Assembly: GCF_047602025.1 (NCBI RefSeq)
Contig: NZ_JASGII010000001.1
Span: 619,201 to 643,200 of the forward strand
From: Gordonia sp. (in: high G+C Gram-positive bacteria)
GTDB lineage: Bacteria > Actinomycetota > Actinomycetes > Mycobacteriales > Mycobacteriaceae
DNA: 24,000 bases
Direction: 5' to 3'
Shown: piece after piece, positions 7,027 to 20,218 of the stretch
Layout: every line of letters begins with the position of its first letter
Position numbering within the stretch: position 1 is the first letter of the stretch
Position numbers and translations under genes: made by a program
The notes under the pieces: model-generated
What the model was told of the DNA's origin: nothing
Database searches by the model: none
Seen by the model: only the letters and a program-made list of their open reading frames with translations

Positions 7027-7848
7027 ATGACTCAGCCGCCCATCGATCCGGGCCAGCAACCGCCGCACGTTCCGGGCCAGCAGCCCGGCGCCTACCCGCC
7101 GCCCCCGCCCCCCGGGGGCTACGCCCCGGTTCCCGGCGCACACCCGTTCAGCGTCGGCGACGGCTTCAGCTGGGCCTTCAACAAGTTCGGCAAGAACTGG
7201 GTGCCGCTGGTCCTGGCGACCCTGGTGATGTTCATCATCATGGGCATCATCAACGGCGTCTTCAGCGGCATCGCGGGCGCCCTGGCCGACACCAGCAGCA
7301 GCGTGGTGGACACCGACGACGGCTTCAGCGCCGTCTTCTCGACCTCGGGCTTCACCGCGGGCAGCTGGATCATGACGATCCTCGGCATGATCGTGTCGCT
7401 GATCGTCGGCGGCTACGTCGCCGCGGCCTACTGGAACGGCATCCTGAAGATCGCCGACGGCCAGCAGGTCACCTTCGGCTCCTTCTTCCAGCCGCGCAAC
7501 GTCGGCCAGGTCATCATCGCCTCGGTGCTGTCCGGCCTGATCATGATGATCGGTTTCGCGGCGTGCTTCCTGCCCGGCCTGGTCGCCGCGATCTTCCTGT
7601 ACTTCACGACCATCGCGGTGGTGGACCACAACCTGAAGGGTCCGGACGGGCTGTCGGCCAGCTTCAACGTCGTCAAGGCCAACTTCGGCCCGGCGTTGCT
7701 GACCGCCCTGCTCGCCTGGGTGACCGTTGCCGTCGGCCTGCTGCTCTGCGGTGTCGGTGCGCTGGCCGGTGCCCCGATTGCGGCGCTGCTCGTGGCTTAC
7801 GCCTGGCGGCACCTCACCGGCGGCTACGTCGCGCCGCAGACGCAGTAG
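7027..7848 (+). CDS. Polytopic membrane protein with Pro-rich N-terminus, paralog 1 of 3
   Basis: SD GGGAG then ATG 7027. Starts MTQPP. Shares motifs with the next two genes: FSxGxxFSWAxxKF and YxxGxLxIAxGQxxTFGSFFxPRN. About 6 hydrophobic segments. Confidence 0.8.
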   Translation: MTQPPIDPGQQPPHVPGQQPGAYPPPPPPGGYAPVPGAHPFSVGDGFSWAFNKFGKNWVPLVLATLVMFIIMGIINGVFSGIAGALADTSSSVVDTDDGFSAVFSTSGFTAGSWIMTILGMIVSLIVGGYVAAAYWNGILKIADGQQVTFGSFFQPRNVGQVIIASVLSGLIMMIGFAACFLPGLVAAIFLYFTTIAVVDHNLKGPDGLSASFNVVKANFGPALLTALLAWVTVAVGLLLCGVGALAGAPIAALLVAYAWRHLTGGYVAPQTQ

Positions 7849-7958: not shown

Positions 7959-8747
7959 ATGACCCAGCCGACCGGCGACGCCTACCCGGCCCACGTTGGC
8001 GCGAGTGAGCCCCAGCAGACCGCCTACCCGGTCCACCCGGATCCCAATGCGACGCCGTACAGCATCGGCGGGGCCTTCAGCTGGGCCCTGTCGAAGTTCT
8101 CGGCGAACGCGGTCGGCCTCGTCGGGGGAGCCGCGGTCCACACCCTGCTCCTGGCGCTCGGCCCGGCCATTGCGGCCGGTGGCGCCTTTCTGTTTGCCGA
8201 CAGCTTCTCCATCGAATCCGGCGGGGGCGGCACCTATGAGGAGTTCACCGACTGGTCGCTGACCCCGGGCAGCTACGTCGCCATCGCCTTCGGCCTGCTG
8301 GTGACACTGCTGCTGACCGCCTACTCGCTCAGCGCCTACATCGGCGGCGTCGTCGACATCGCCAACGGGCAGCTGACGACCTTCGGATCCTTCTTCCGGC
8401 CGCGGAACTACGCGAAGGTGCTCGGCACCGTCGTGCTGCTGTCCCTGGCGTTGGCCCTCGGCTCGCTCGTCTTCCTCGTCGGCGCGGTCGTCGTGGTCTT
8501 CCTGTTCTGGTTCGCCATCCCGATCGTCGTCGACCGCGGCGTCGGCCCGTGGACCGCGCTCAAGCAGAGCGCATCGCTGGTGCGCGCCAACTTCGGCGAG
8601 TCGCTGGTGACGGCCCTGCTGGTCGGCATGGTGTGGGTCGTCGGCAACAGCGCCTGCGGCGTTTTCGTCATCGTCACCGCCCCGATCGCCACCCTGATCG
8701 CCGTCTTCGCCCTCCGCCGCTTCGCCGGCGACACGATCGCACCCTAG
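7959..8747 (+). CDS. Polytopic membrane protein with Pro-rich N-terminus, paralog 2 of 3
   Basis: SD GAGGAAG then ATG 7959. Starts MTQPT. Carries YSIGGAFSWALSKF and IANGQLTTFGSFFRPRN, the same layout as 7027..7848. Confidence 0.8.
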   Translation: MTQPTGDAYPAHVGASEPQQTAYPVHPDPNATPYSIGGAFSWALSKFSANAVGLVGGAAVHTLLLALGPAIAAGGAFLFADSFSIESGGGGTYEEFTDWSLTPGSYVAIAFGLLVTLLLTAYSLSAYIGGVVDIANGQLTTFGSFFRPRNYAKVLGTVVLLSLALALGSLVFLVGAVVVVFLFWFAIPIVVDRGVGPWTALKQSASLVRANFGESLVTALLVGMVWVVGNSACGVFVIVTAPIATLIAVFALRRFAGDTIAP

Positions 8748-8755
8748 GAGCCCGC

Positions 8756-9553
8756 ATGACCCAGCCGCCCGTCCCCCCGCAGGAGCCGTCGGTGACGCCG
8801 CAGCCGCCGATTCCGCCCGCCGCCCCGGCGGGGCCCGCCGGCTACGGCCCGCCCGCCTACCACCCGTCGACCGATCCCAACGCGGTGCCGTTCGGCATCG
8901 ACGTCGGCTTCAAGTGGGCCTGGTCGAAGCTGACGTCGAACGCGGCCGGGCTCATCCTCGGCGGCCTCGTGCTGCTGCTCGCGTCGAGCATCGGCGCCAT
9001 CCTCGCCGCCGTCGGAGCGGTGATGATCCTCTCCAGCGGCGACGTCGACCCCGACGGCACCCTGCACCCCGACTTCGGTTCGGGCGCCGCGATCACCGGC
9101 TTCGTCTTGGCCGTGCTCGGCGTGATCGCCCTGCTGGTCGCCTCGGCGTACCTGAGCAGTGCGTACACCGGCGGCCTGCTCGACATCGCCAACGGCGTGC
9201 CCACGACGGTCGGCTCCTTCCTGCGCCCGCGCCGACTGGGCACGGTGTTCGTGCTGCTGATGCTGCAGTTCCTGGCCACGATGGTCGGCCTGCTCTTCTT
9301 CTGCGTCGGCGCCATCGTCGTCGGCTTCTTCCTGATGTTCTCGGTGCTGGCCGTCGTCGACCGCGGCGTCGGCGCCGTCGACGGGATGAAGGCGAGCGTG
9401 TCGATCGTGCGCGCCCGGCTCGGCGATTCCTTCCTGCTGTGGTTGGTCGTCTTCGCGCTGTCGGCGGTCCTGGGGATCTTCGCCTTCCCGTTCGTTCAAC
9501 TGCTGACCGTGTACGGCTACCGGCGATTGGCCAACCAGCCGATCGCCCCGTGA
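8756..9553 (+). CDS. Polytopic membrane protein with Pro-rich N-terminus, paralog 3 of 3
   Basis: AGGAG (8746-8750) overlaps the upstream TAG and is followed by ATG 8756. Starts MTQPP. Carries FGIDVGFKWAWSKL and IANGVPTTVGSFLRPRR. The track start at 8549 lies inside the previous gene. Confidence 0.8.
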   Translation: MTQPPVPPQEPSVTPQPPIPPAAPAGPAGYGPPAYHPSTDPNAVPFGIDVGFKWAWSKLTSNAAGLILGGLVLLLASSIGAILAAVGAVMILSSGDVDPDGTLHPDFGSGAAITGFVLAVLGVIALLVASAYLSSAYTGGLLDIANGVPTTVGSFLRPRRLGTVFVLLMLQFLATMVGLLFFCVGAIVVGFFLMFSVLAVVDRGVGAVDGMKASVSIVRARLGDSFLLWLVVFALSAVLGIFAFPFVQLLTVYGYRRLANQPIAP

Positions 9554-9609
9554 TCACCGTCTGGGCGATCCTCGGCCAATTCTCAGGCGCACTGGGATAA
9601 GAAGTAGTC

Positions 9610-13940: not shown

Positions 13941-13978
13941 TTTGCCGACGGGCACCGACTGGTGCGAGAAGGGTGAAG

Positions 13979-14620
13979 ATGAGCGTGAAGCGTCGTCCGT
14001 CGCGATGGGCGGGTGTGACGGTGGCGTTGGCCACCGCGGCCGCGGTGACGGTGTCGGGACTGGGCGCGGGCGACGCGGATGCGTTGCGCCTGCCGGCCGG
14101 CAAGAAGAAGTCCACCGGGATCGACGGCCAGGTCGTCCTCCTCAAGCGCTCCGCCGAGTACGTCTTCCCGCAGCCGAGTGAGGCGCGCAACGGCGCCGGT
14201 CGCTCCACGCGTGTCTCGGGCACCTACACCGCGCGGATCAACCGCGGCGGCGGCAACGTCCAGGTCGGCTACCTCGTCGGCTGCCAGGTCAACATCGGCG
14301 GCCTCGACATGGGGTTGTCCGGCGGCTTCTACGGCCTGGCGGCTCCGGTGCCGCTGGTCAACGGCACAATCTCGTTCCCGCTGCAGCCCGGCCAGATCCA
14401 GGTGGTCCAGGCGCTGTCGAAGAACTTCTACCGCAAGGTCGTGAGCATCCAGCTCTCCGGCGTGGAGATCGCCGTGCAGAGCTGCGGCGGGTTCGCCCAG
14501 GCGCGCTCGTTCATCAAGGTGCTGGCCGCCGAGGACTACAGCACCGCCAGCGGCACGGTCAGCGGCAAGAGCACGGCCATCCAGACCACCCTCTACGGCA
14601 AGCCGTTCAGCCTCGGCTGA
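13979..14620 (+). CDS. MspA-family porin-like secreted protein 1
   Basis: AGAAGGG then ATG 13979. Signal peptide ends at ...GLGAGDADA. My by-eye alignment to recalled M. smegmatis MspA pairs VQVGYLVGCQVNIGG with LELGYQIGFPWSLG, LQPGQIQVV with GPGIQEV, and C-terminal TTLYGKPFSLG with TTYGEPWNMN. Length about 213 aa, close to the MspA precursor. Confidence 0.7.
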   Translation: MSVKRRPSRWAGVTVALATAAAVTVSGLGAGDADALRLPAGKKKSTGIDGQVVLLKRSAEYVFPQPSEARNGAGRSTRVSGTYTARINRGGGNVQVGYLVGCQVNIGGLDMGLSGGFYGLAAPVPLVNGTISFPLQPGQIQVVQALSKNFYRKVVSIQLSGVEIAVQSCGGFAQARSFIKVLAAEDYSTASGTVSGKSTAIQTTLYGKPFSLG

Positions 14621-14647
14621 CCCGCAGCAAAAGGAACCTTGGACCAG

Positions 14648-15307
14648 ATGAACTCCTTGCGAACCGGCGCTCCGCGCCGGGCGGTCGCCGGCGTCGCCCT
14701 CGTGCTCGCCGCCGCGACCGCGACGATGGCCGCGGCGCCCGGCGCGGACGCCCGCCGCCTGCCCGGCGGCTCGATCAACAAGAAGCTGGTCGACGGTTCC
14801 ACCGTCAAGGCCCGCCTCTACGACGAGGGCGTGCGCTACCACCGCGGCAACGTCGCCAACATCGGGACCAGCCGCGAGGTGTGGGTGTCGGGCAAGATCG
14901 TCGCCAACATCGGCGGCGGTGCCAAGGGTGCGCACATCTACGGCGGCTACGTCGTGGGTTGCCAGGTGAACCTCATCGGGGTTGACGGCAACGGCAACGC
15001 TGGTAACAACCCCTGGATCCCCAACGGCGGCATGATGGGCAACTCCGGCACGACGCTGCACATCGGCCCCGGCCAGGCCGGCTGGGTGCCGATCATCCAG
15101 GCCGTCCCGCAGGCCGGCGGCAACCCGCTCAACACCTTCACCTTCCGAGGCAACCGCGGTGGCCTCGCCTATAGCCAAGAGGGTTTCCGCGTGAACGGCT
15201 GTGCCGGGCACGCGTCGGCCCGAGCCCGATTCACCATCGAGGTCGAGACCGAGACGGTGCGCGCCCAAGTCGTCCTGTGGGGGAAGCCATTCACCCTCGG
15301 CGGCTGA
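14648..15307 (+). CDS. MspA-family porin-like secreted protein 2 (paralog of 13979..14620)
   Basis: Signal peptide ends at ...AAAPGADA. Carries GGYVVGCQVNLIG, HIGPGQAGWVPIIQ and C-terminal VVLWGKPFTLGG. Start is ATG 14648, or TTG 14639 as in the track. The SD AAGGAA is 11 nt upstream of the ATG, so the start is uncertain by 9 nt. Confidence 0.7.
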   Translation: MNSLRTGAPRRAVAGVALVLAAATATMAAAPGADARRLPGGSINKKLVDGSTVKARLYDEGVRYHRGNVANIGTSREVWVSGKIVANIGGGAKGAHIYGGYVVGCQVNLIGVDGNGNAGNNPWIPNGGMMGNSGTTLHIGPGQAGWVPIIQAVPQAGGNPLNTFTFRGNRGGLAYSQEGFRVNGCAGHASARARFTIEVETETVRAQVVLWGKPFTLGG

Positions 15308-15434: not shown

Positions 15435-16127
15435 ATGACCACGACGCGACAGGCACTCCTGGCCGCACCATTGCTGGTGGCCGGCCTGAGCCTCGGCACC
15501 ACCACCGCATATGCCGATCCCGCGCCCGCGCCGGGCGCCACCCAGCCGGTCAACCCCGGCTCGAAGCTGTGGGACCAGATCAAGAACGGTCTCGGCGGCG
15601 GAAACAACCAGGGCCACGGCCACGACGATCACGATCACGACGGCGACGGCCACGATGACCACGACCACGATGATCACGACCACGACGGCGACGGCCACGA
15701 CGATCACGACGGCCACGACCACGAGGGCGGCACCGGCGGCACCGGTGGCATCCCCGGTGGCACCGGAGGGTCGACCGGCGGCGGGCACAGCTGCAATGAC
15801 GGCCACGGCCACTGCGACAACAACAGCACCGCCGGCGGCGGCATGGGCGGCGGTGGCGGCGGCGGCCACAACCACGGTCACGGTCACGACCACAGCGGTC
15901 ACAACCACGGCTCGACCGGGCCGGGCAGCGCCTACGGCGAGCGTGGCAACGCCCTCGACGACGAGTCGCCGGTGTGCAAGAAGGCGAAGAAGCGCGGCAA
16001 GCGGGTCGTGAAGTGCGCCCCGCCGCGCCGCGGCTCGACCCCGCCGCCCCCGCAGCGGTCGGCGCCCCAGCACGGTCACGACCACCACGACCACGACGGT
16101 CACGACCACCACGGGCACAGCCACTAG
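15435..16127 (+). CDS. Secreted His/Asp/Gly-rich low-complexity protein (putative metal-binding)
   Basis: GAGGAG lies 5 nt before ATG 15435. Signal peptide MTTTRQALLAAPLLVAGLSLGTTTAYA then DPAP. Three His blocks and four Cys (HSCNDGHGHC and VCKKAKKRGKRVVKC). CAC/CAT and GAC/GAT variation falls on third positions of this frame. Confidence 0.8.
   Translation: MTTTRQALLAAPLLVAGLSLGTTTAYADPAPAPGATQPVNPGSKLWDQIKNGLGGGNNQGHGHDDHDHDGDGHDDHDHDDHDHDGDGHDDHDGHDHEGGTGGTGGIPGGTGGSTGGGHSCNDGHGHCDNNSTAGGGMGGGGGGGHNHGHGHDHSGHNHGSTGPGSAYGERGNALDDESPVCKKAKKRGKRVVKCAPPRRGSTPPPPQRSAPQHGHDHHDHDGHDHHGHSH
15612..15725 (+). repeat. In-frame His/Asp run GHGHDDHDHDGDGHDDHDHDDHDHDGDGHDDHDGHDHE
   Basis: By my count, 13 His and 17 Asp in 38 residues. 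CACGACGGCGACGGCCACGA occurs twice. A second block, QHGHDHHDHDGHDHHGHSH, forms the C-terminus (16068-16124). Confidence 0.8.
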
Positions 16128-16256
16128 CGCAACGGAGCAAACTGGCAATCCCCTGTGCATCGCCGTCAGGGTGCCTGAAGTTCCTGGAAATGGGTCAACT
16201 GTCCAGCTAGCGTCGAAGGCGTAGGAAATGGTCGGGACAACGAAAGGGATGTCACC

Positions 16257-16403
16257 ATGCGTCACCACTACGGCCCTCGCCGCTACTACGGCCCGCGCCG
16301 CTACTACGGACCCCGCGGCCCGCGCGGCTACTACGGTCCTCGCCGCTACTACGGCCCGCGCCGGTACTACGGCCCGCGCCCGCGCTACTGGGGTTCGTAC
16401 TGA
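16257..16403 (+). CDS. 48-aa Tyr/Arg/Gly/Pro repeat peptide (YYGPRR)n; not in the supplied ORF track
   Basis: GAAAGGGA (16242-16249) lies 7 nt before ATG 16257. Translation is MRHHYGPRRYYGPRRYYGPRGPRGYYGPRRYYGPRRYYGPRPRYWGSY, ending at TGA 16401-16403. Differences between repeat units are third-position synonymous in this frame (CCT/CCG/CCC, GGC/GGA/GGT, CGC/CGG). Hairpins follow the stop. Confidence 0.7.
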   Translation: MRHHYGPRRYYGPRRYYGPRGPRGYYGPRRYYGPRRYYGPRPRYWGSY

Positions 16404-16408
16404 CCCAG

Positions 16409-16427
16409 CGCTTCCCTAGCGGAAGCG
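16409..16427 (+). other. Small hairpin immediately after the peptide stop codon
   Basis: CGCTTCC (16409-16415), loop CTAGC, GGAAGCG (16421-16427). It abuts the terminator stem. Confidence 0.35.
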
Positions 16428-16480
16428 GATTCGACCACCGGATGAAGACTCCCTGCTTCTCCGGTGGTCGAATCTTATTA
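16428..16480 (+). terminator. Rho-independent terminator or attenuator between the peptide gene and the ABC exporter
   Basis: Perfect 15-bp arms, GATTCGACCACCGGA (16428-16442) and TCCGGTGGTCGAATC (16460-16474), with a 17-nt loop, followed by TTATTA. Confidence 0.7.
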
Positions 16481-16536
16481 GGCTGACAAGAGATCGCGGC
16501 GCCGCCAGGCGGCCCGCACCCCGACCCGAGGATCAG

Positions 16537-18495
16537 ATGGCCCGCAACCGCATGAGGCTCTTCCCGTCCGCTCGGGGCGCTCACCGCGCCCCCGATCGCT
16601 TCGACGAGGATGGCGACTTCGACTGGGCCGAGCAGGCCATGATCGACGAGTCGATCGGCGATGACGCGGTTTCCTGGGACGTCGAGCGCTGGCAGCAGCA
16701 GGATGGCGAGCCGCTGCCCGACGCCATGCTGGTGCCGCCCGCGACCCCGTTGCACGTGTTGGCCGCGATTCGCCGGTTCCGCCCGTACATGAAGGGCCTC
16801 TACGGCCGCCTGGTCCTCGGTATCATCCTGCAACTGGTCGACCTGCTGGCCAACGTCGCCAGCATCGCGCTGTTCGCGACGATCGTCGACAAGGTGCTTG
16901 TGCCCGGCGGCAAGTTTGAGAACCTCGCCCAGCCGATGACCCTGTGGATCGCGGTGACCCTCATCGGCGCGCTCGCCTCCTATTTCGGCGAAGTCCTCAC
17001 CGGTGTCGTCGCCGAGCGCATGGTCATGCGCGTGCGCGACGACCTCTACGAGCACACCCAGCAGCTGGCTCCGCACGTGCGGCGCAAATACCCCTCCGGT
17101 GATCTGATCGCCCGGCACAGCGGCGACGTCGAGTCGACCGAGCACCTGGTGTCCTCGGCCGTCGTCGACGCGACGTTGGCCGTCATCTCGGTCATCGTCT
17201 ATGCGGCCGCGGCGCTGAAGGCCGACTGGAAGCTCGCCATGGTCGCCTTCGTGCTGGCGCCCATCCTGGCGATCATCTCGCGGTGGTTCGGCGTCGTACT
17301 CAAACGCGTGTCTCGCCGCGAGCGGATCGCCAACGGCAAGATCAGCGCCCTGGTCGCCGAGGGCGTCGACAACTCGCTGGCCATCCAGGCAGACAACCAG
17401 GGGCCCGCCGACCGGCGTCGAGTGCGAGCCCAGTCGCTCGAATGGATGCGGGCGCGCGTCACCGAGATCAAGGCAGGCGAGATCTACGGCCAGGCCGTGG
17501 CCATGGTCGAGTTGTTCGTCATGCTCGGCGTCCTCGTCCTCGGGGCCTGGCAGATCACGCACGGCCACACCACCCTCGGTGCGCTGATCGCCCTCACCGG
17601 CTATCTCGGCCAGCTGTACCCGCAGATCCAATCCCTGGGCAGCCTGGCGGTCTCCATCACCACCGCGACGGCCAGCGCCGAGCGTGTCGCCCAGGTCCTC
17701 GACGAGCCGATCGCCATCGCCGACGACGAGGTCGACACCGACCCCGAGTCCGAGCTGCCGGTGCCCGCCGCGCTGCCCGTGCACACCAAGGGTGGGGTGC
17801 CGGTGGCCTTCGAACACGTCGACTTCGCCTACCCAGACTCGGGCACCAAGGTCTTCGACGACTTCAACCTCGACTTGGGCGCGGGCGAGTTCGTCTCCCT
17901 CGTCGGACCGAGCGGCGCCGGCAAGACGACCGTCACGCACCTGCTGCTGCGGTTCTACGACCCGGACTCGGGCACCGTGCGGATCGACGGCACCGACCTG
18001 TCGACCGAATCGCTCACCGCGGTCCGCAACCACATCACCCTGCTGCCGCAGCGGATCGCGATCTACCGCGGCACGATCGCCGACAACATCCGGTTCTCCT
18101 GCCCCGGCGCCTCGCGCGAGGAGATCGTCGCCGCCGCCCGTGCCGCCGACGCACACGACTTCATCGTGGGCCTCCCCGACGGCTACGACACCGAGCTGCG
18201 CGACGCCGGTGCCAACCTGTCCGGCGGCCAGCGACAGCGGATCGCCCTGGCGCGCGCCTTCCTGCGCGACACCCCGGTGCTGATCCTGGACGAGCCGACG
18301 ACCGGCCTGGACGCGGCCACCACCGAGCGCGTCCTGGAGCCGATGATGCGGTTGGCGACCTCGCGCACGACCATCCTGATCACGCACGACGCGGAGCTGG
18401 CGGCCAAGGCGCCGCGCGTCGTCGAATTGACCCCCGTCGCAGACGCGTCGGACGACCGACCCGCCCGGCGGGCCGAGGGAGAGGGAGTCCAATGA
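16537..18495 (+). CDS. ABC exporter, fused permease + ATPase (type I exporter fold) with ~70-aa acidic N-terminal extension
   Basis: GAGGA lies 4 nt before ATG 16537. Six TM segments, then Walker A GPSGAGKTT, Q-loop LLPQ, signature LSGGQRQRIALARAF, Walker B VLILDEPT and H-loop ITHD. Confidence 0.9.
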   Translation: MARNRMRLFPSARGAHRAPDRFDEDGDFDWAEQAMIDESIGDDAVSWDVERWQQQDGEPLPDAMLVPPATPLHVLAAIRRFRPYMKGLYGRLVLGIILQLVDLLANVASIALFATIVDKVLVPGGKFENLAQPMTLWIAVTLIGALASYFGEVLTGVVAERMVMRVRDDLYEHTQQLAPHVRRKYPSGDLIARHSGDVESTEHLVSSAVVDATLAVISVIVYAAAALKADWKLAMVAFVLAPILAIISRWFGVVLKRVSRRERIANGKISALVAEGVDNSLAIQADNQGPADRRRVRAQSLEWMRARVTEIKAGEIYGQAVAMVELFVMLGVLVLGAWQITHGHTTLGALIALTGYLGQLYPQIQSLGSLAVSITTATASAERVAQVLDEPIAIADDEVDTDPESELPVPAALPVHTKGGVPVAFEHVDFAYPDSGTKVFDDFNLDLGAGEFVSLVGPSGAGKTTVTHLLLRFYDPDSGTVRIDGTDLSTESLTAVRNHITLLPQRIAIYRGTIADNIRFSCPGASREEIVAAARAADAHDFIVGLPDGYDTELRDAGANLSGGQRQRIALARAFLRDTPVLILDEPTTGLDAATTERVLEPMMRLATSRTTILITHDAELAAKAPRVVELTPVADASDDRPARRAEGEGVQ

Positions 18496-19193
18496 AGAAC
18501 TGGAAGCTGACGGCGGCGCTCTCCGCGCCGATCCTCGCCGCCGGTGTGCTGATGGGCGGCGGCGCCGTCTACGCCGCACCGGGTGACGGCGGCGGCAACG
18601 GTGGCGGCGGCGGCAATTCCGGCGGCCCGAGCGGCGGTGGTGGCAACCACGGCGGCCCCAGCGGCGGCGGTGGCGACCACGGCGGCCCGAGCGGCGGCGG
18701 TGGGCACCAGGGCGGTCCGGGCGGCGGCCTGGGCGGCGATGGTGGCCGAGGCGGCGACGGCGGTCGCGGCGGTGAGCACGGCGATCGCGGTGGTGACGGC
18801 GGCCGGGGCGGCCACGACCATGGGGATCGGGGCCCGCGCGGCGATCGCGGTGACCGGGGCGATCGCGGCGACCGTGGCGACCGCGGTGACCGGGGCAATC
18901 GCGGTGACCGTGGCCATCGGGGCGATCGCGGACATCGCGGCGACCGTGGCCACTGGGGCGATCGCGGCCCGCGCGGCCCGCGCCACGACCACCGCCACCC
19001 GCGGGGCAACGGCCCGTGGTACGACCCCAACCCGTACAACCGGCCGCACCGGCACAACCCGCGGCAGCGGCCACCGCACTACGGCCCGCAGTACTGGCCC
19101 GAGAACAACCGGCGCTACCGCGAGATGCGTCGGCAGTACCGCGGTCACTACCACTACTACGGCCCGTGGGCGGTCCCGCGCAGCTGGAGCTAG
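18492..19193 (+). CDS. Secreted Gly-rich / collagen-like (Gly-Asp-Arg)n protein with Tyr/Arg/Pro/His-rich C-terminal tail
   Basis: ATG 18492 overlaps the ABC stop (ATGA), and GAGGGAG lies 4 nt upstream. Signal peptide [28 protein letters not shown] then APGD. Next come GGPSGGGG(N/D/H)H repeats, 18 uninterrupted G-X-Y triplets, and the tail ...[26 protein letters not shown]. Confidence 0.8.
18822..18983 (+). repeat. 18 consecutive in-frame Gly-X-Y triplets ([54 protein letters not shown])
   Basis: 9-nt periodic DNA (GGN GAY CGN) with synonymous variation between units. A broader Gly-rich region starts near 18583. Confidence 0.85.
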
Positions 19194-19256: not shown

Positions 19257-20048
19257 CTAGCGCGAGTGGCGGCCGGGGTGGTCCGGCGGCAGGTCCGGAT
19301 CGGGGTACCCGGGGTAGCCGCCGTCGGAATACCCCGTGTCGGAGTAGCCACCGTCGTCGTAGCCACCGGCCTGGTAGCCGCCGCCGGCCGGCGGCGGCAC
19401 GGGCGGCTGCGAGCCGGTGGGGTAGCCGCCGCGCGGCTGGTAGGCGCCGGGTGCGGGCGGGGGAGTGCCGACCGGGGGCTGCGAGCCGGTGGGGTAGCCG
19501 CCGCGCGGCTGGTAGGCGCCGGGTGCGGGCGGGGGTCCGCCGACCGGGGGCTGCGAGCCGGTGGGGTAGCCGCCGGCGGGGCGGATCATCGGCGCGGCAT
19601 CGGCCTTGGCCTTCGCGTCGGCCTTCGCGTCGGCGTCAGGATCCATCAGGTTGCGGATCTCGGTGAGCAGCGAGACCTCGGTGTCCTCGTCCTTGTCGCC
19701 ACCGGACACCAGGCCGGACAGCTTGTTGTACGGCAGCACGATGATGAAGTAGACGACGGCGGCCACGATCAGGAAGTTGATCGCCGCGGTGATCACCGCG
19801 GAGAGGTCGACGTAGTTCAGCGCGCTGGTGACGTTGGTGTTGTCCTTGGCGAGCCGGCATTCGCCGATGCAGAAGCCGAGGCCCTTGACGGCGTTGGGGT
19901 CGTTGCCGCCGAACGAGTTGATCAGCGGCTGGATGACCTTCTCGGTGAAGGCGGTGACGATCGCGGTGAACGCGGCGCCGATGATGACCGCCGTCGACAA
20001 TTCGACGACGTTCCCGCGAAGGATGAAGTCCTTGAAGCCTTTGAACAC
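19257..20048 (-). CDS. mscL: Large-conductance mechanosensitive channel MscL with long Pro/Gly/Tyr-rich C-terminal extension
   Basis: GAGAGGGG lies 6 nt before GTG 20048. The N-terminus (V)FKGFKDFILRGNVVELSTAVIIGAAFTAIV is the MscL signature. 263 aa versus about 130-150 aa typical. The track start at 20090 adds 14 non-conserved residues. Confidence 0.85.
   Translation of the reverse strand: MFKGFKDFILRGNVVELSTAVIIGAAFTAIVTAFTEKVIQPLINSFGGNDPNAVKGLGFCIGECRLAKDNTNVTSALNYVDLSAVITAAINFLIVAAVVYFIIVLPYNKLSGLVSGGDKDEDTEVSLLTEIRNLMDPDADAKADAKAKADAAPMIRPAGGYPTGSQPPVGGPPPAPGAYQPRGGYPTGSQPPVGTPPPAPGAYQPRGGYPTGSQPPVPPPAGGGYQAGGYDDGGYSDTGYSDGGYPGYPDPDLPPDHPGRHSR
19405..19574 (-). repeat. 72-bp tandem repeat (~2.4 copies) inside the mscL 3' region
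   Basis: Units begin at 19405, 19477 and 19549. Copies 1 and 2 differ at 3 of 72 positions. On the minus strand they encode GGYPTGSQPPVG(G/T)PPPAPGAYQPR. Confidence 0.85.
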
Positions 20049-20218
20049 TGTGAGCCCCTCTCTCGGTATGCACAGTCTGTTTTTCGCCAAGCGTCCCGAC
20101 CCGAAGACGCAGCACAGTTGGCTGAATCGTAAACCCGGACCCCCACCAGGTCTGTCGTCTGACTTCGAATGGTTGTTTCATCGTGTGCAATCCGAGACGT
20201 TGCCGAATCAACCTCCCA

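Follow-up and report, generated by a model that had tools for sequence, protein, structure and literature searches.

A probable Tyr/Arg-rich repeat peptide gene ahead of an ABC exporter in one lineage of Gordonia

Introduction

When does a short tandem repeat in GC-rich DNA amount to a gene, and what might its product do? The question is posed by positions 16257..16403 (+) of a 24,000-nucleotide stretch of a Gordonia sp. genome (contig NZ_JASGII010000001.1; the whole stretch is called the window below). Here a mini-gene of 48 codons, built from two 63-nt half-repeats and located ahead of an ABC exporter gene, codes for MRHHYGPRRYYGPRRYYGPRGPRGYYGPRRYYGPRRYYGPRPRYWGSY. An earlier note on this DNA had singled out the open reading frame (ORF) and had read the pattern of its repeat differences as a sign of selection on the peptide sequence. 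The evidence given below indicates that the ORF is, in all likelihood, a real and translated gene. If translated, it represents a clear case of a conserved micro-gene missed by standard annotation in high-GC actinobacteria. In eukaryotic systems such a mixture of Tyr and Arg goes with adhesion and phase separation; for bacteria we found neither a curated family nor a paper. Surface adhesion and sludge foaming are well known from Gordonia species. A surface-active peptide, if that is what this gene produces, could be relevant there, and a genetically encoded adhesive or coacervating Tyr/Arg peptide of 48 residues might also be of interest for biomaterials.

The mini-gene and its product

The ORF appears in the mechanical ORF list of the window with a translation identical to that of the earlier note, and the residue tally given there (13 Y, 13 R, 9 G, 8 P, 2 H and neither D nor E) was reproduced. 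Tyr, Arg, Gly and Pro make up 90% of the residues, Tyr and Arg together 54%, and the net charge is +13. Six (Y/H)YGPR(R/G) units are found along the chain, plus GPRPR and GPRGPRG segments. Disorder is predicted, the AlphaFold2 model of the peptide being without secondary structure (predicted template modelling score, pTM, 0.13). A Shine-Dalgarno (SD) sequence, GAAAGGGA, occupies 16242..16249 (+), 7 nt 5' of the ATG at 16257, where it had been placed before. The N-terminus reads MRHHYGPRR, only 2 of the 48 residues are hydrophobic, and no in-frame start codon lies 5' of ATG 16257 that could conceal a signal peptide, in agreement with the earlier statement that the product has none. The description of the ORF as unlisted also stands in the sense that large protein collections hold no called gene for the exact peptide.

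Reading frame of the tandem repeat

Tandem Repeats Finder recovered the proposed tandem repeat with a period of 18 (6.8 copies) and, as the better fit, a period of 63 (1.9 copies, 91% match). When the 63-nt halves are compared, four substitutions are observed over 15 aligned codons, and all four are synonymous and fall on the third codon position, for which the chance under random placement is about p=0.01. The ends of the halves differ by in-frame indels and non-synonymous changes. The idea that the repeat units vary at third positions only therefore holds, but on weaker grounds than first put. Such synonymous-only differences suggest coding and are not decisive alone. A third-position count of 0/0/20 was discarded because its units had been defined by peptide identity, which made the count circular.

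The window has a GC content of 70.9%, and its genuine genes show a much higher GC content at the third codon position (GC3) than at the second (GC2). The ABC gene, for example, has values of 0.70/0.46/0.93 at codon positions 1/2/3. The frame that encodes the Y/G/P/R peptide has a GC3 of 0.857, the highest among the frames of the repeat. A comparable third-position GC is seen in just one other frame, which belongs to the opposite strand and is riddled with stops. An Ala/Thr-rich ORF of 63 residues at 16228..16419, in the +1 frame, was rejected: its GC content peaks at codon position 2, which is not coding-like, and G. crocea has no counterpart of it. A minus-strand ORF of 940 residues was set aside as the antisense shadow of the ABC gene.

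Orthologs and selection

We scanned one genome per species with a back-translated DNA pattern for YGPRxYYGPR and obtained at least 119 loci. Among the matches listed, one is actinobacterial, and it belongs to a Gordonia metagenome-assembled genome (MAG; locus L085). This locus is collinear with the window (mprB-pepD-moaB-MspA-MspA-peptide-hairpin-ABC-collagen-like) and holds in the same slot an ortholog of 56 residues, M(TM)KNDAYGPRRYYGPRGYHGPRRPYGPGYYGPRRPYGPGYGGPRRYYGPPRRYYGSL. The ortholog of G. crocea NBRC 107697 (locus L120; nbrc107697_10320) was reached through the contexts of ABC orthologs. It has 53 residues, MKFNVDRYGRGPHRGGPRGHYGPPPRRYYGGPRGYYGPRRHYGPRRPYGFWGS, and is already an NCBI-called 53-residue hypothetical protein; the gene is thus called in one of three genomes only. 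A peptide identical to that of G. crocea is encoded on JGI contig P0066, with SD sequence and TTG start intact. SD equivalents of the AAGGGA type precede the start by 5-7 nt in each case (GAAGGGA in L085, AAAGGGA in L120 and P0066). The comparison covers three species, with three or four occurrences counting P0066, and leaves out two likely extra orthologous loci, those of the ABC orthologs P0005 from G. araii NBRC 100433 and P0006, an entry shared by several Gordonia species.

Across the three species, Y, R, G and P account for 90%, 86% and 77% of the peptide and the net charge is +13, +11 and +11, at an ORF DNA identity of only about 64-72%. The differences in length (48, 56 and 53 residues) are all in-frame, and GC3 peaks in the Y/G/P/R frame each time (0.86-0.89). 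The ratio of non-synonymous to synonymous substitution rates (dN/dS; Nei-Gojobori, three pairs) is 0.36-0.57 for the peptide, 0.20 for the ABC gene and 0.37-0.40 for the collagen-like gene that follows it. Because the peptide dS (0.43-0.49) is close to that of the ABC gene (0.46-0.70), vertical co-inheritance of the two genes fits the data. An excess of synonymous changes was nominally significant in two of the three pairs (one-sided Fisher tests, p = 0.02, 0.03 and 0.15).

The orthologs were inspected for frameshifts or stops in this frame, which the earlier note had named as evidence to look for against the gene, and the frame was found open in both syntenic copies, with a caveat at the start of the G. 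crocea gene. At L120 4665-4710, a 22-nt segment is duplicated in tandem (TTGAAGTTCAACGTCGATCGT twice). The SD-proximal TTG then opens only MKFNVDR followed by a stop (7 codons), and the main ORF restarts at the overlapping TTGA. The near-identical contig P0066 does not carry the duplication. Since the SD sequence and start are kept, this frame has the top GC3 in each of the three species, the orthologs are syntenic and dN/dS lies at 0.36-0.57, we judge the ORF to be coding with good confidence, and selection on the peptide frame is borne out. Selection would appear to hold the composition and the repeat pattern and not the exact sequence.

Terminator and promoter-like elements

The mini-gene had been described as sitting directly upstream of the ABC exporter. 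The two genes do adjoin in order, but they are not contiguous: a 133-nt gap with a very stable hairpin lies between them. By folding, a short hairpin (GCTTCC-CTAGC-GGAAGC) at 16410..16426 (+) begins 7 nt past the stop codon. Its place and structure are kept in L085 (GGCCTCC..GGAGGCC) and L120 (GGCTCTG..CAGAGCT) with a different sequence. It is followed at 16427..16475 (+; 39-nt core 16432-16470) by a long, intrinsic-terminator-like hairpin with the U-rich tail CUUAUUA. This second hairpin has 17-19 bp across the three species and a U-rich tail in each, and the 106-nt region of the window folds with -49.1 kcal/mol (z = -5.5 versus shuffles). Its core is identical at 36-38 of 38-39 nt in the three species, while the flanks do not align. 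The loop ACUCCCUG is conserved as well, and the UCCCU within it is complementary to the SD core AGGGA of the peptide gene. Judged from these alignments, the conservation seems to exceed the need of a plain terminator. No Rfam family matched the hairpin at gathering or permissive thresholds, and a metagenome scan with the conserved core returned 0 matches. In minimum-free-energy (MFE) folds of the whole transcript the terminator was intact in all three species, and these MFE structures contained no helix that competes for its 5' arm.

Two TANNNT boxes, read from the sequence, flank this unit as candidate -10 elements. One, TAGCGT at 16208..16213 (+), lies about 43 nt before the start codon; at the aligned site L085 has TAGCGT and L120 TAGGTT, and two loci without the peptide have TAGCGT (L124) and TACGGT (L122). 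The other, TAGGCT at 16479..16484 (+), stands directly after the terminator, 52 nt before the ABC start, and is kept as TAGGCT or TACGCT in L085, L120 and the peptide-less L122. Both align with the short MspA-ABC spacer of the peptide-less loci. A sigma-70 consensus scan found nothing. We infer a promoter role for both boxes, and the second suggests that the ABC gene may have its own promoter after the terminator.

Distribution of the cassette in Gordonia

The syntenic slot, in which two MspA genes are followed by the peptide, the hairpin and the ABC exporter, is shared by the window, L085 and L120. The ABC gene is present and the cassette absent in L121 (Gordonia sp. TBRC 11910), in two MAG lineages (L122/L123 and L124/L126) and in L125 (G. 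pseudamarae, with a different ABC context). The ABC orthologs of L122, L124 and L126 are 79-80% identical to that of the window and that of L121 is 61% identical. An ABC-specific probe gave 2 matches in metagenomes, both of peptide-less types already known. A collagen-like gene with a Tyr-rich tail occurs at all three peptide-bearing loci. In L124, where the peptide is missing, the collagen-like ortholog ends in a tail free of Tyr, and neither gene is present in L121 or L122. The apparent co-occurrence of the peptide with the Tyr-tailed collagen-like protein is intriguing, on very few genomes. Taken at the level of gene content, the peptide gene presents itself as an accessory, self-contained and separately terminated unit of one Gordonia lineage.

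Look-alike proteins in other bacteria

Most of the loci found with the repeat pattern lie in Proteobacteria (e.g. Bradyrhizobium, Bosea, Pseudomonas, Cupriavidus and Methylocystis), and a few in MAGs of Planctomycetota, Acidobacteriota, Bacteroidota and Chloroflexota. Nearly all of these look-alikes are ~80-170 residues long and begin with a Sec signal peptide or a lipobox, followed by (Y/F)YGPR(R/P/Y) repeats; examples are found at L071 6881-7168 and 7325-7639, L009 6784-7071 and L011 7182-7424. In Bradyrhizobium they carry a 'VCNAWGRCWWRPN' Cys prefix, in Pseudomonas they are lipoproteins, and in Bosea they form a tandem gene pair, one member of which ends in CF..DRRVWNGYRWV.RPVRVCR. They are annotated as 'hypothetical protein' (e.g. 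Bradyrhizobium WP_211413991.1), matched no Pfam or NCBIfam model and have no conserved neighbour gene. What the Gordonia peptide and the proteobacterial proteins have in common is the repeat motif, which in Bosea extends to exact YYGPRRYYGPRR runs, and a repeat region of 40-60 residues with the same composition and no acidic residues. The Gordonia peptides have no leader and are made up of the repeat alone, whereas the proteobacterial proteins have a Sec signal or lipobox and often a Cys prefix or suffix, and belong to other phyla and unrelated gene neighbourhoods. In kind, the window peptide belongs with the widespread bacterial Y/G/P/R-repeat mini-proteins, as an actinobacterial variant that lacks a leader. 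The secreted YYGPR-repeat proteins form a large and taxonomically broad set, and a function established for one of them would annotate hundreds of 'hypothetical proteins'.

A profile built from the three Gordonia peptides matched the look-alikes with E = 0.13-5, values that low complexity makes statistically uninformative. The peptide alone, searched with HMMER against a collection of 5.8 billion proteins, gave 164 word-sharing candidates of which none was significant, the low-complexity correction leaving this search without power. With phmmer, three matches were obtained among 1.84 billion representatives, all unrelated repeat proteins. Exact-sequence look-ups of the peptide, the 63-residue alternative ORF, the ABC protein and the neighbours returned no record; viral contigs and plasmids gave no match, and the peptide and its look-alikes matched no family in Pfam, NCBIfam or PADLOC. 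A search of the available library of papers for the YYGPRR or YYGPR motif found nothing relevant.

Comparison with known peptide systems

The closest parallel known to us among characterised proteins is mature mussel foot protein 3 (Mfp-3, UniProt Q9GUX8), ADYYGPKYGPPRRYGGGNYNRYGRRYGGYKGWNNGWKRGRWGRKYY (PMC9287526). Mfp-3 and the Gordonia peptide have 46 and 48 residues, 22% and 27% Tyr, 26% and 27% basic residues, 26% and 19% Gly and net charges of +11 and +13, and they have in common YYGP, GPPRRY/GPRRY and an aromatic-rich tail at the end. Mfp-3 differs in being an animal protein secreted by a signal peptide, with much Asn, Lys and Trp and little Pro. For adhesion it relies on the enzymatic conversion of Tyr to 3,4-dihydroxyphenylalanine (DOPA).

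Leaderless (class II) bacteriocins resemble the Gordonia product in being small, cationic, without a cleaved leader and encoded beside an ABC exporter, but they have an amphipathic helix or hydrophobic core that is absent here. The proline/arginine-rich antimicrobial peptides (PrAMPs) of animals are likewise small, cationic and ribosomally made. They are high in Pro, however, whereas the Gordonia peptide is dominated by Tyr and has only 17% Pro. Attenuator leaders of the trp/his type and antibiotic-responsive upstream ORFs (uORFs) share with the window the order of short ORF, terminator and operon. The Gordonia ORF is unlike them in being long and repetitive, selected along its whole length and without an anti-terminator in its MFE folds, and in preceding an operon that exists without it. 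Scl-type collagen repeats place Gly at every third residue; in the Gordonia peptide Gly recurs with a period of 6 and only GPRGPRG is triplet-like, and the GXY run at this locus belongs to the downstream protein of 233 residues and not to the peptide.

Proposed function and alternatives

We tentatively favour the reading that this is a genuine small gene of one Gordonia lineage whose product (48-56 residues, net charge +11 to +13, 77%-90% Y/R/G/P across species) acts as a disordered multivalent sticker, most likely at the cell envelope. Its Tyr and Arg side chains, which alternate, would make electrostatic and cation-pi contacts with polyanions and with aromatic or other surfaces, and Tyr-rich partners are possible. 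Cation-pi contacts between Arg and Tyr have been put forward as a driving force for condensates (PMC13339138). If the (Y/H)YGPR(R/G) units serve as repeated low-affinity binding modules, selection would be expected to act on composition and repeat pattern. The envelope or the cell surface is favoured as the site of action because the look-alikes are secreted and the neighbouring genes encode envelope or secreted proteins. Export would then have to be non-Sec, and the adjacent ABCB-type exporter is a candidate route by which the cationic peptide could possibly leave the cell, export of such a peptide having been one of the roles suggested before. The closeness of mature Mfp-3 in size and composition and the co-occurrence with the Tyr-tailed collagen-like protein also speak for this mode and place of action.

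Several observations weigh against this assignment. The window peptide has no signal peptide, Tat or lipobox motif or hydrophobic segment, and the L085 and L120 peptides are likewise without an N-terminal Sec or lipoprotein signal; export is thus something that we infer. The ABC exporter looks generic and is present without the peptide, so it does not appear to have been recruited specifically for it. Homology of the proteobacterial look-alikes to the Gordonia peptides is, on the available alignments, not demonstrable, and their members are uncharacterised. The resemblance to Mfp-3 would be at most convergence, being one of composition without homology and with no tyrosinase near the Gordonia gene. 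The selection statistics are weak, resting on n=3 and short sequences, and the alignment of the repeats is ambiguous and biased towards identity. Finally, the 22-nt duplication in the G. crocea isolate hints at relaxed constraint.

A bolder form of the envelope reading seems doubtful to us. It holds that an exported Tyr/Arg 'glue' peptide of 5-6 kDa without a classical signal is a convergent bacterial counterpart of Mfp-3, that it coats or cross-bridges the mycomembrane, and that it defines a new class of envelope mini-proteins, adhesive or condensate-forming, together with the proteobacterial YYGPR proteins. Such a glue would act at the surface by cation-pi or electrostatic coacervation. It could have as partners the neighbouring porins of the MspA family, in which the pore of canonical MspA is acidic, or the collagen-like protein with its Tyr-rich tail, encoded two genes further on.

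The peptide might instead stay in the cytoplasm and bind polyanions there (RNA, ribosomes, DNA or polyphosphate), for instance to scaffold condensates or to serve in stress or storage, which we regard as possible but rather unlikely. The lack of an export signal, the near absence of hydrophobic residues, the predicted disorder and the proposal that Arg/Tyr peptides form condensates (PMC13339138) would all suit an internal binder, as would a terminator that sets the gene apart from an ABC gene able to occur without it. Against this, all the bacterial proteins found to resemble it in composition carry signal peptides, the genes of the island all encode envelope or secreted proteins (MspA twice, the His-rich protein, the ABC exporter and the collagen-like protein), and none of the nearby genes is nucleic-acid-related. 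We consider it quite unlikely that the product is a leaderless Arg/Pro-rich antimicrobial that the adjacent ABC protein exports, perhaps also conferring immunity. A leaderless, strongly cationic peptide of 48-56 residues with GPRPR and GPRGPRG segments, encoded beside an exporter by an accessory, patchy and fast-evolving gene, does recall bacteriocins. Yet the peptide has neither the amphipathic or hydrophobic character nor the predicted helix of known leaderless bacteriocins, and with Pro at only 17% and Tyr dominant it is unlike the PrAMPs as generally known. Moreover, the ABC protein has no C39 or bacteriocin-exporter signature and is kept in peptide-less genomes (L121, L122, L124 and L125), no immunity gene is evident, and no PADLOC or other family matched.

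Two further explanations dispense with a functional peptide or subordinate it to regulation. If the ORF were a GC-rich tandem DNA repeat, possibly part of an RNA or of a structural DNA element, that is open by chance, recent shared ancestry and repeat homogenisation could mimic conservation. This would agree with the three or four instances from one Gordonia subclade, with the openness of most repeat frames in DNA of 71% GC, with gene callers skipping the ORF in two of three genomes, with the disruptive 22-nt duplication at the G. crocea start and with a hairpin better conserved than the ORF itself. What makes it improbable is that GC3 peaks in exactly this frame in three species, as it does in nearby bona fide genes, and that the SD sequence and start are conserved at the right spacing while length differences stay in-frame. 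The synonymous excess, the composition kept despite about 30% DNA divergence and the lack of an Rfam match point the same way. Lower still we place a cis-regulatory leader peptide (uORF), a role suggested before, whose translation would control read-through of the terminator into the operon of ABC and collagen-like genes. The anatomy of short ORF, terminator hairpin and operon is attenuator-like, the conserved TANNNT box 5' of the ORF recurs in loci where it directly precedes the ABC gene, and the peptide composition echoes the downstream G/R/P/Y-rich protein. We disfavour this role because the ABC gene is independent of the cassette, occurring without it at four other loci (in L124 together with the collagen-like gene), and because no anti-terminator pairing was seen in the MFE folds of the three species, in which the strong, constitutive-looking terminator stays intact. 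In addition, 48-58 codons are long for a leader, another conserved -10-like box stands behind the terminator, and selection runs along the whole peptide and not on a stalling motif. Own termination and absence from other ABC-bearing Gordonia are also the reasons for which the peptide gene is regarded as an accessory unit and not as an attenuator leader.

Gene neighbourhood

The locus is the Corynebacteriales mprA-mprB-pepD-moaB ... mscL region carrying an inserted island, which comprises in order two MspA genes, a gene for a His/Asp-rich secreted protein, the mini-ORF, the ABC half-transporter and the collagen-like protein. The two tandem MspA-family porin paralogs (13973-14620 and 14639-15307, +) lie directly 5' of the rest of the island and are kept in every syntenic Gordonia locus examined, L125 with its different context excepted. 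In L124, the second MspA copy is split into two called genes and is possibly frameshifted. The secreted protein of 230 residues at 15435-16127 (+) contains His/Asp runs (HGHDDHDHDGDGHDDHDHDDHDHD...HGHDHHDHDGHDHHGHSH), has a weak ZrgA-like match (E = 0.019) and, judging by these runs, probably binds metal. Only the window genome has it between MspA and the peptide; L085 and L120 lack it.

The ABCB-type half-transporter at 16537..18495 (+) matches Pfam ABC_membrane and ABC_tran and shows generic matches to the exporters MsbA, Sav1866 and ABCB1; neither a C39 peptidase domain nor a signature specific to bacteriocin exporters was detected in it. The protein is 100% identical to one of a Gordonia sp. 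MAG, and all its orthologs (49-84% identity) come from Gordonia. A cytoplasmic N-terminal extension of ~80 residues (16537-16780) is strongly acidic (e.g. DRFDEDGDFDWAEQAMIDESIGDDAVSWDVERWQQQDGEPLPD), a character kept even in peptide-less genomes. The collagen-like gene at 18492..19193 (+) overlaps the ABC gene by ATGA and encodes a secreted GDR/GPR-triplet protein of 233 residues with a weak SclA match (E = 4.8e-4). This G/D/R/H-rich protein has a signal peptide, Gly-rich and (GDR)n/(GPR)n runs and a Tyr-rich tail (…HYGPQYWP…), and its C-terminus echoes the composition of the peptide. Among the genes of the 24-kb window none codes for a tyrosinase, a radical-SAM or other RiPP-type enzyme, a peptidase or any further enzyme that modifies peptides, and the G. 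crocea flanks encode no tyrosinase or oxidase. Cross-linking of the peptide through Tyr by enzymes encoded elsewhere, a role suggested before, is thus a possibility for which the window itself offers no enzyme.

Elsewhere in the window, tandem ORFs at 7027-7848, 7959-8747 and 8914-9600 (+) had no Pfam match; the genes at 7027-7848 and 7959-8747 are paralogous, their products being Pro/Gln-rich at the N-terminus and hydrophobic towards the C-terminus. The MscL protein encoded at 19257-20132 (-) carries a low-complexity C-terminal extension of ~130 residues in which G, Y, P, Q and S abound. Part of this extension is encoded by a 72-nt tandem repeat (19400-19579, 2.5 copies, 95% match), and the L120 and L122 orthologs carry similar extensions.

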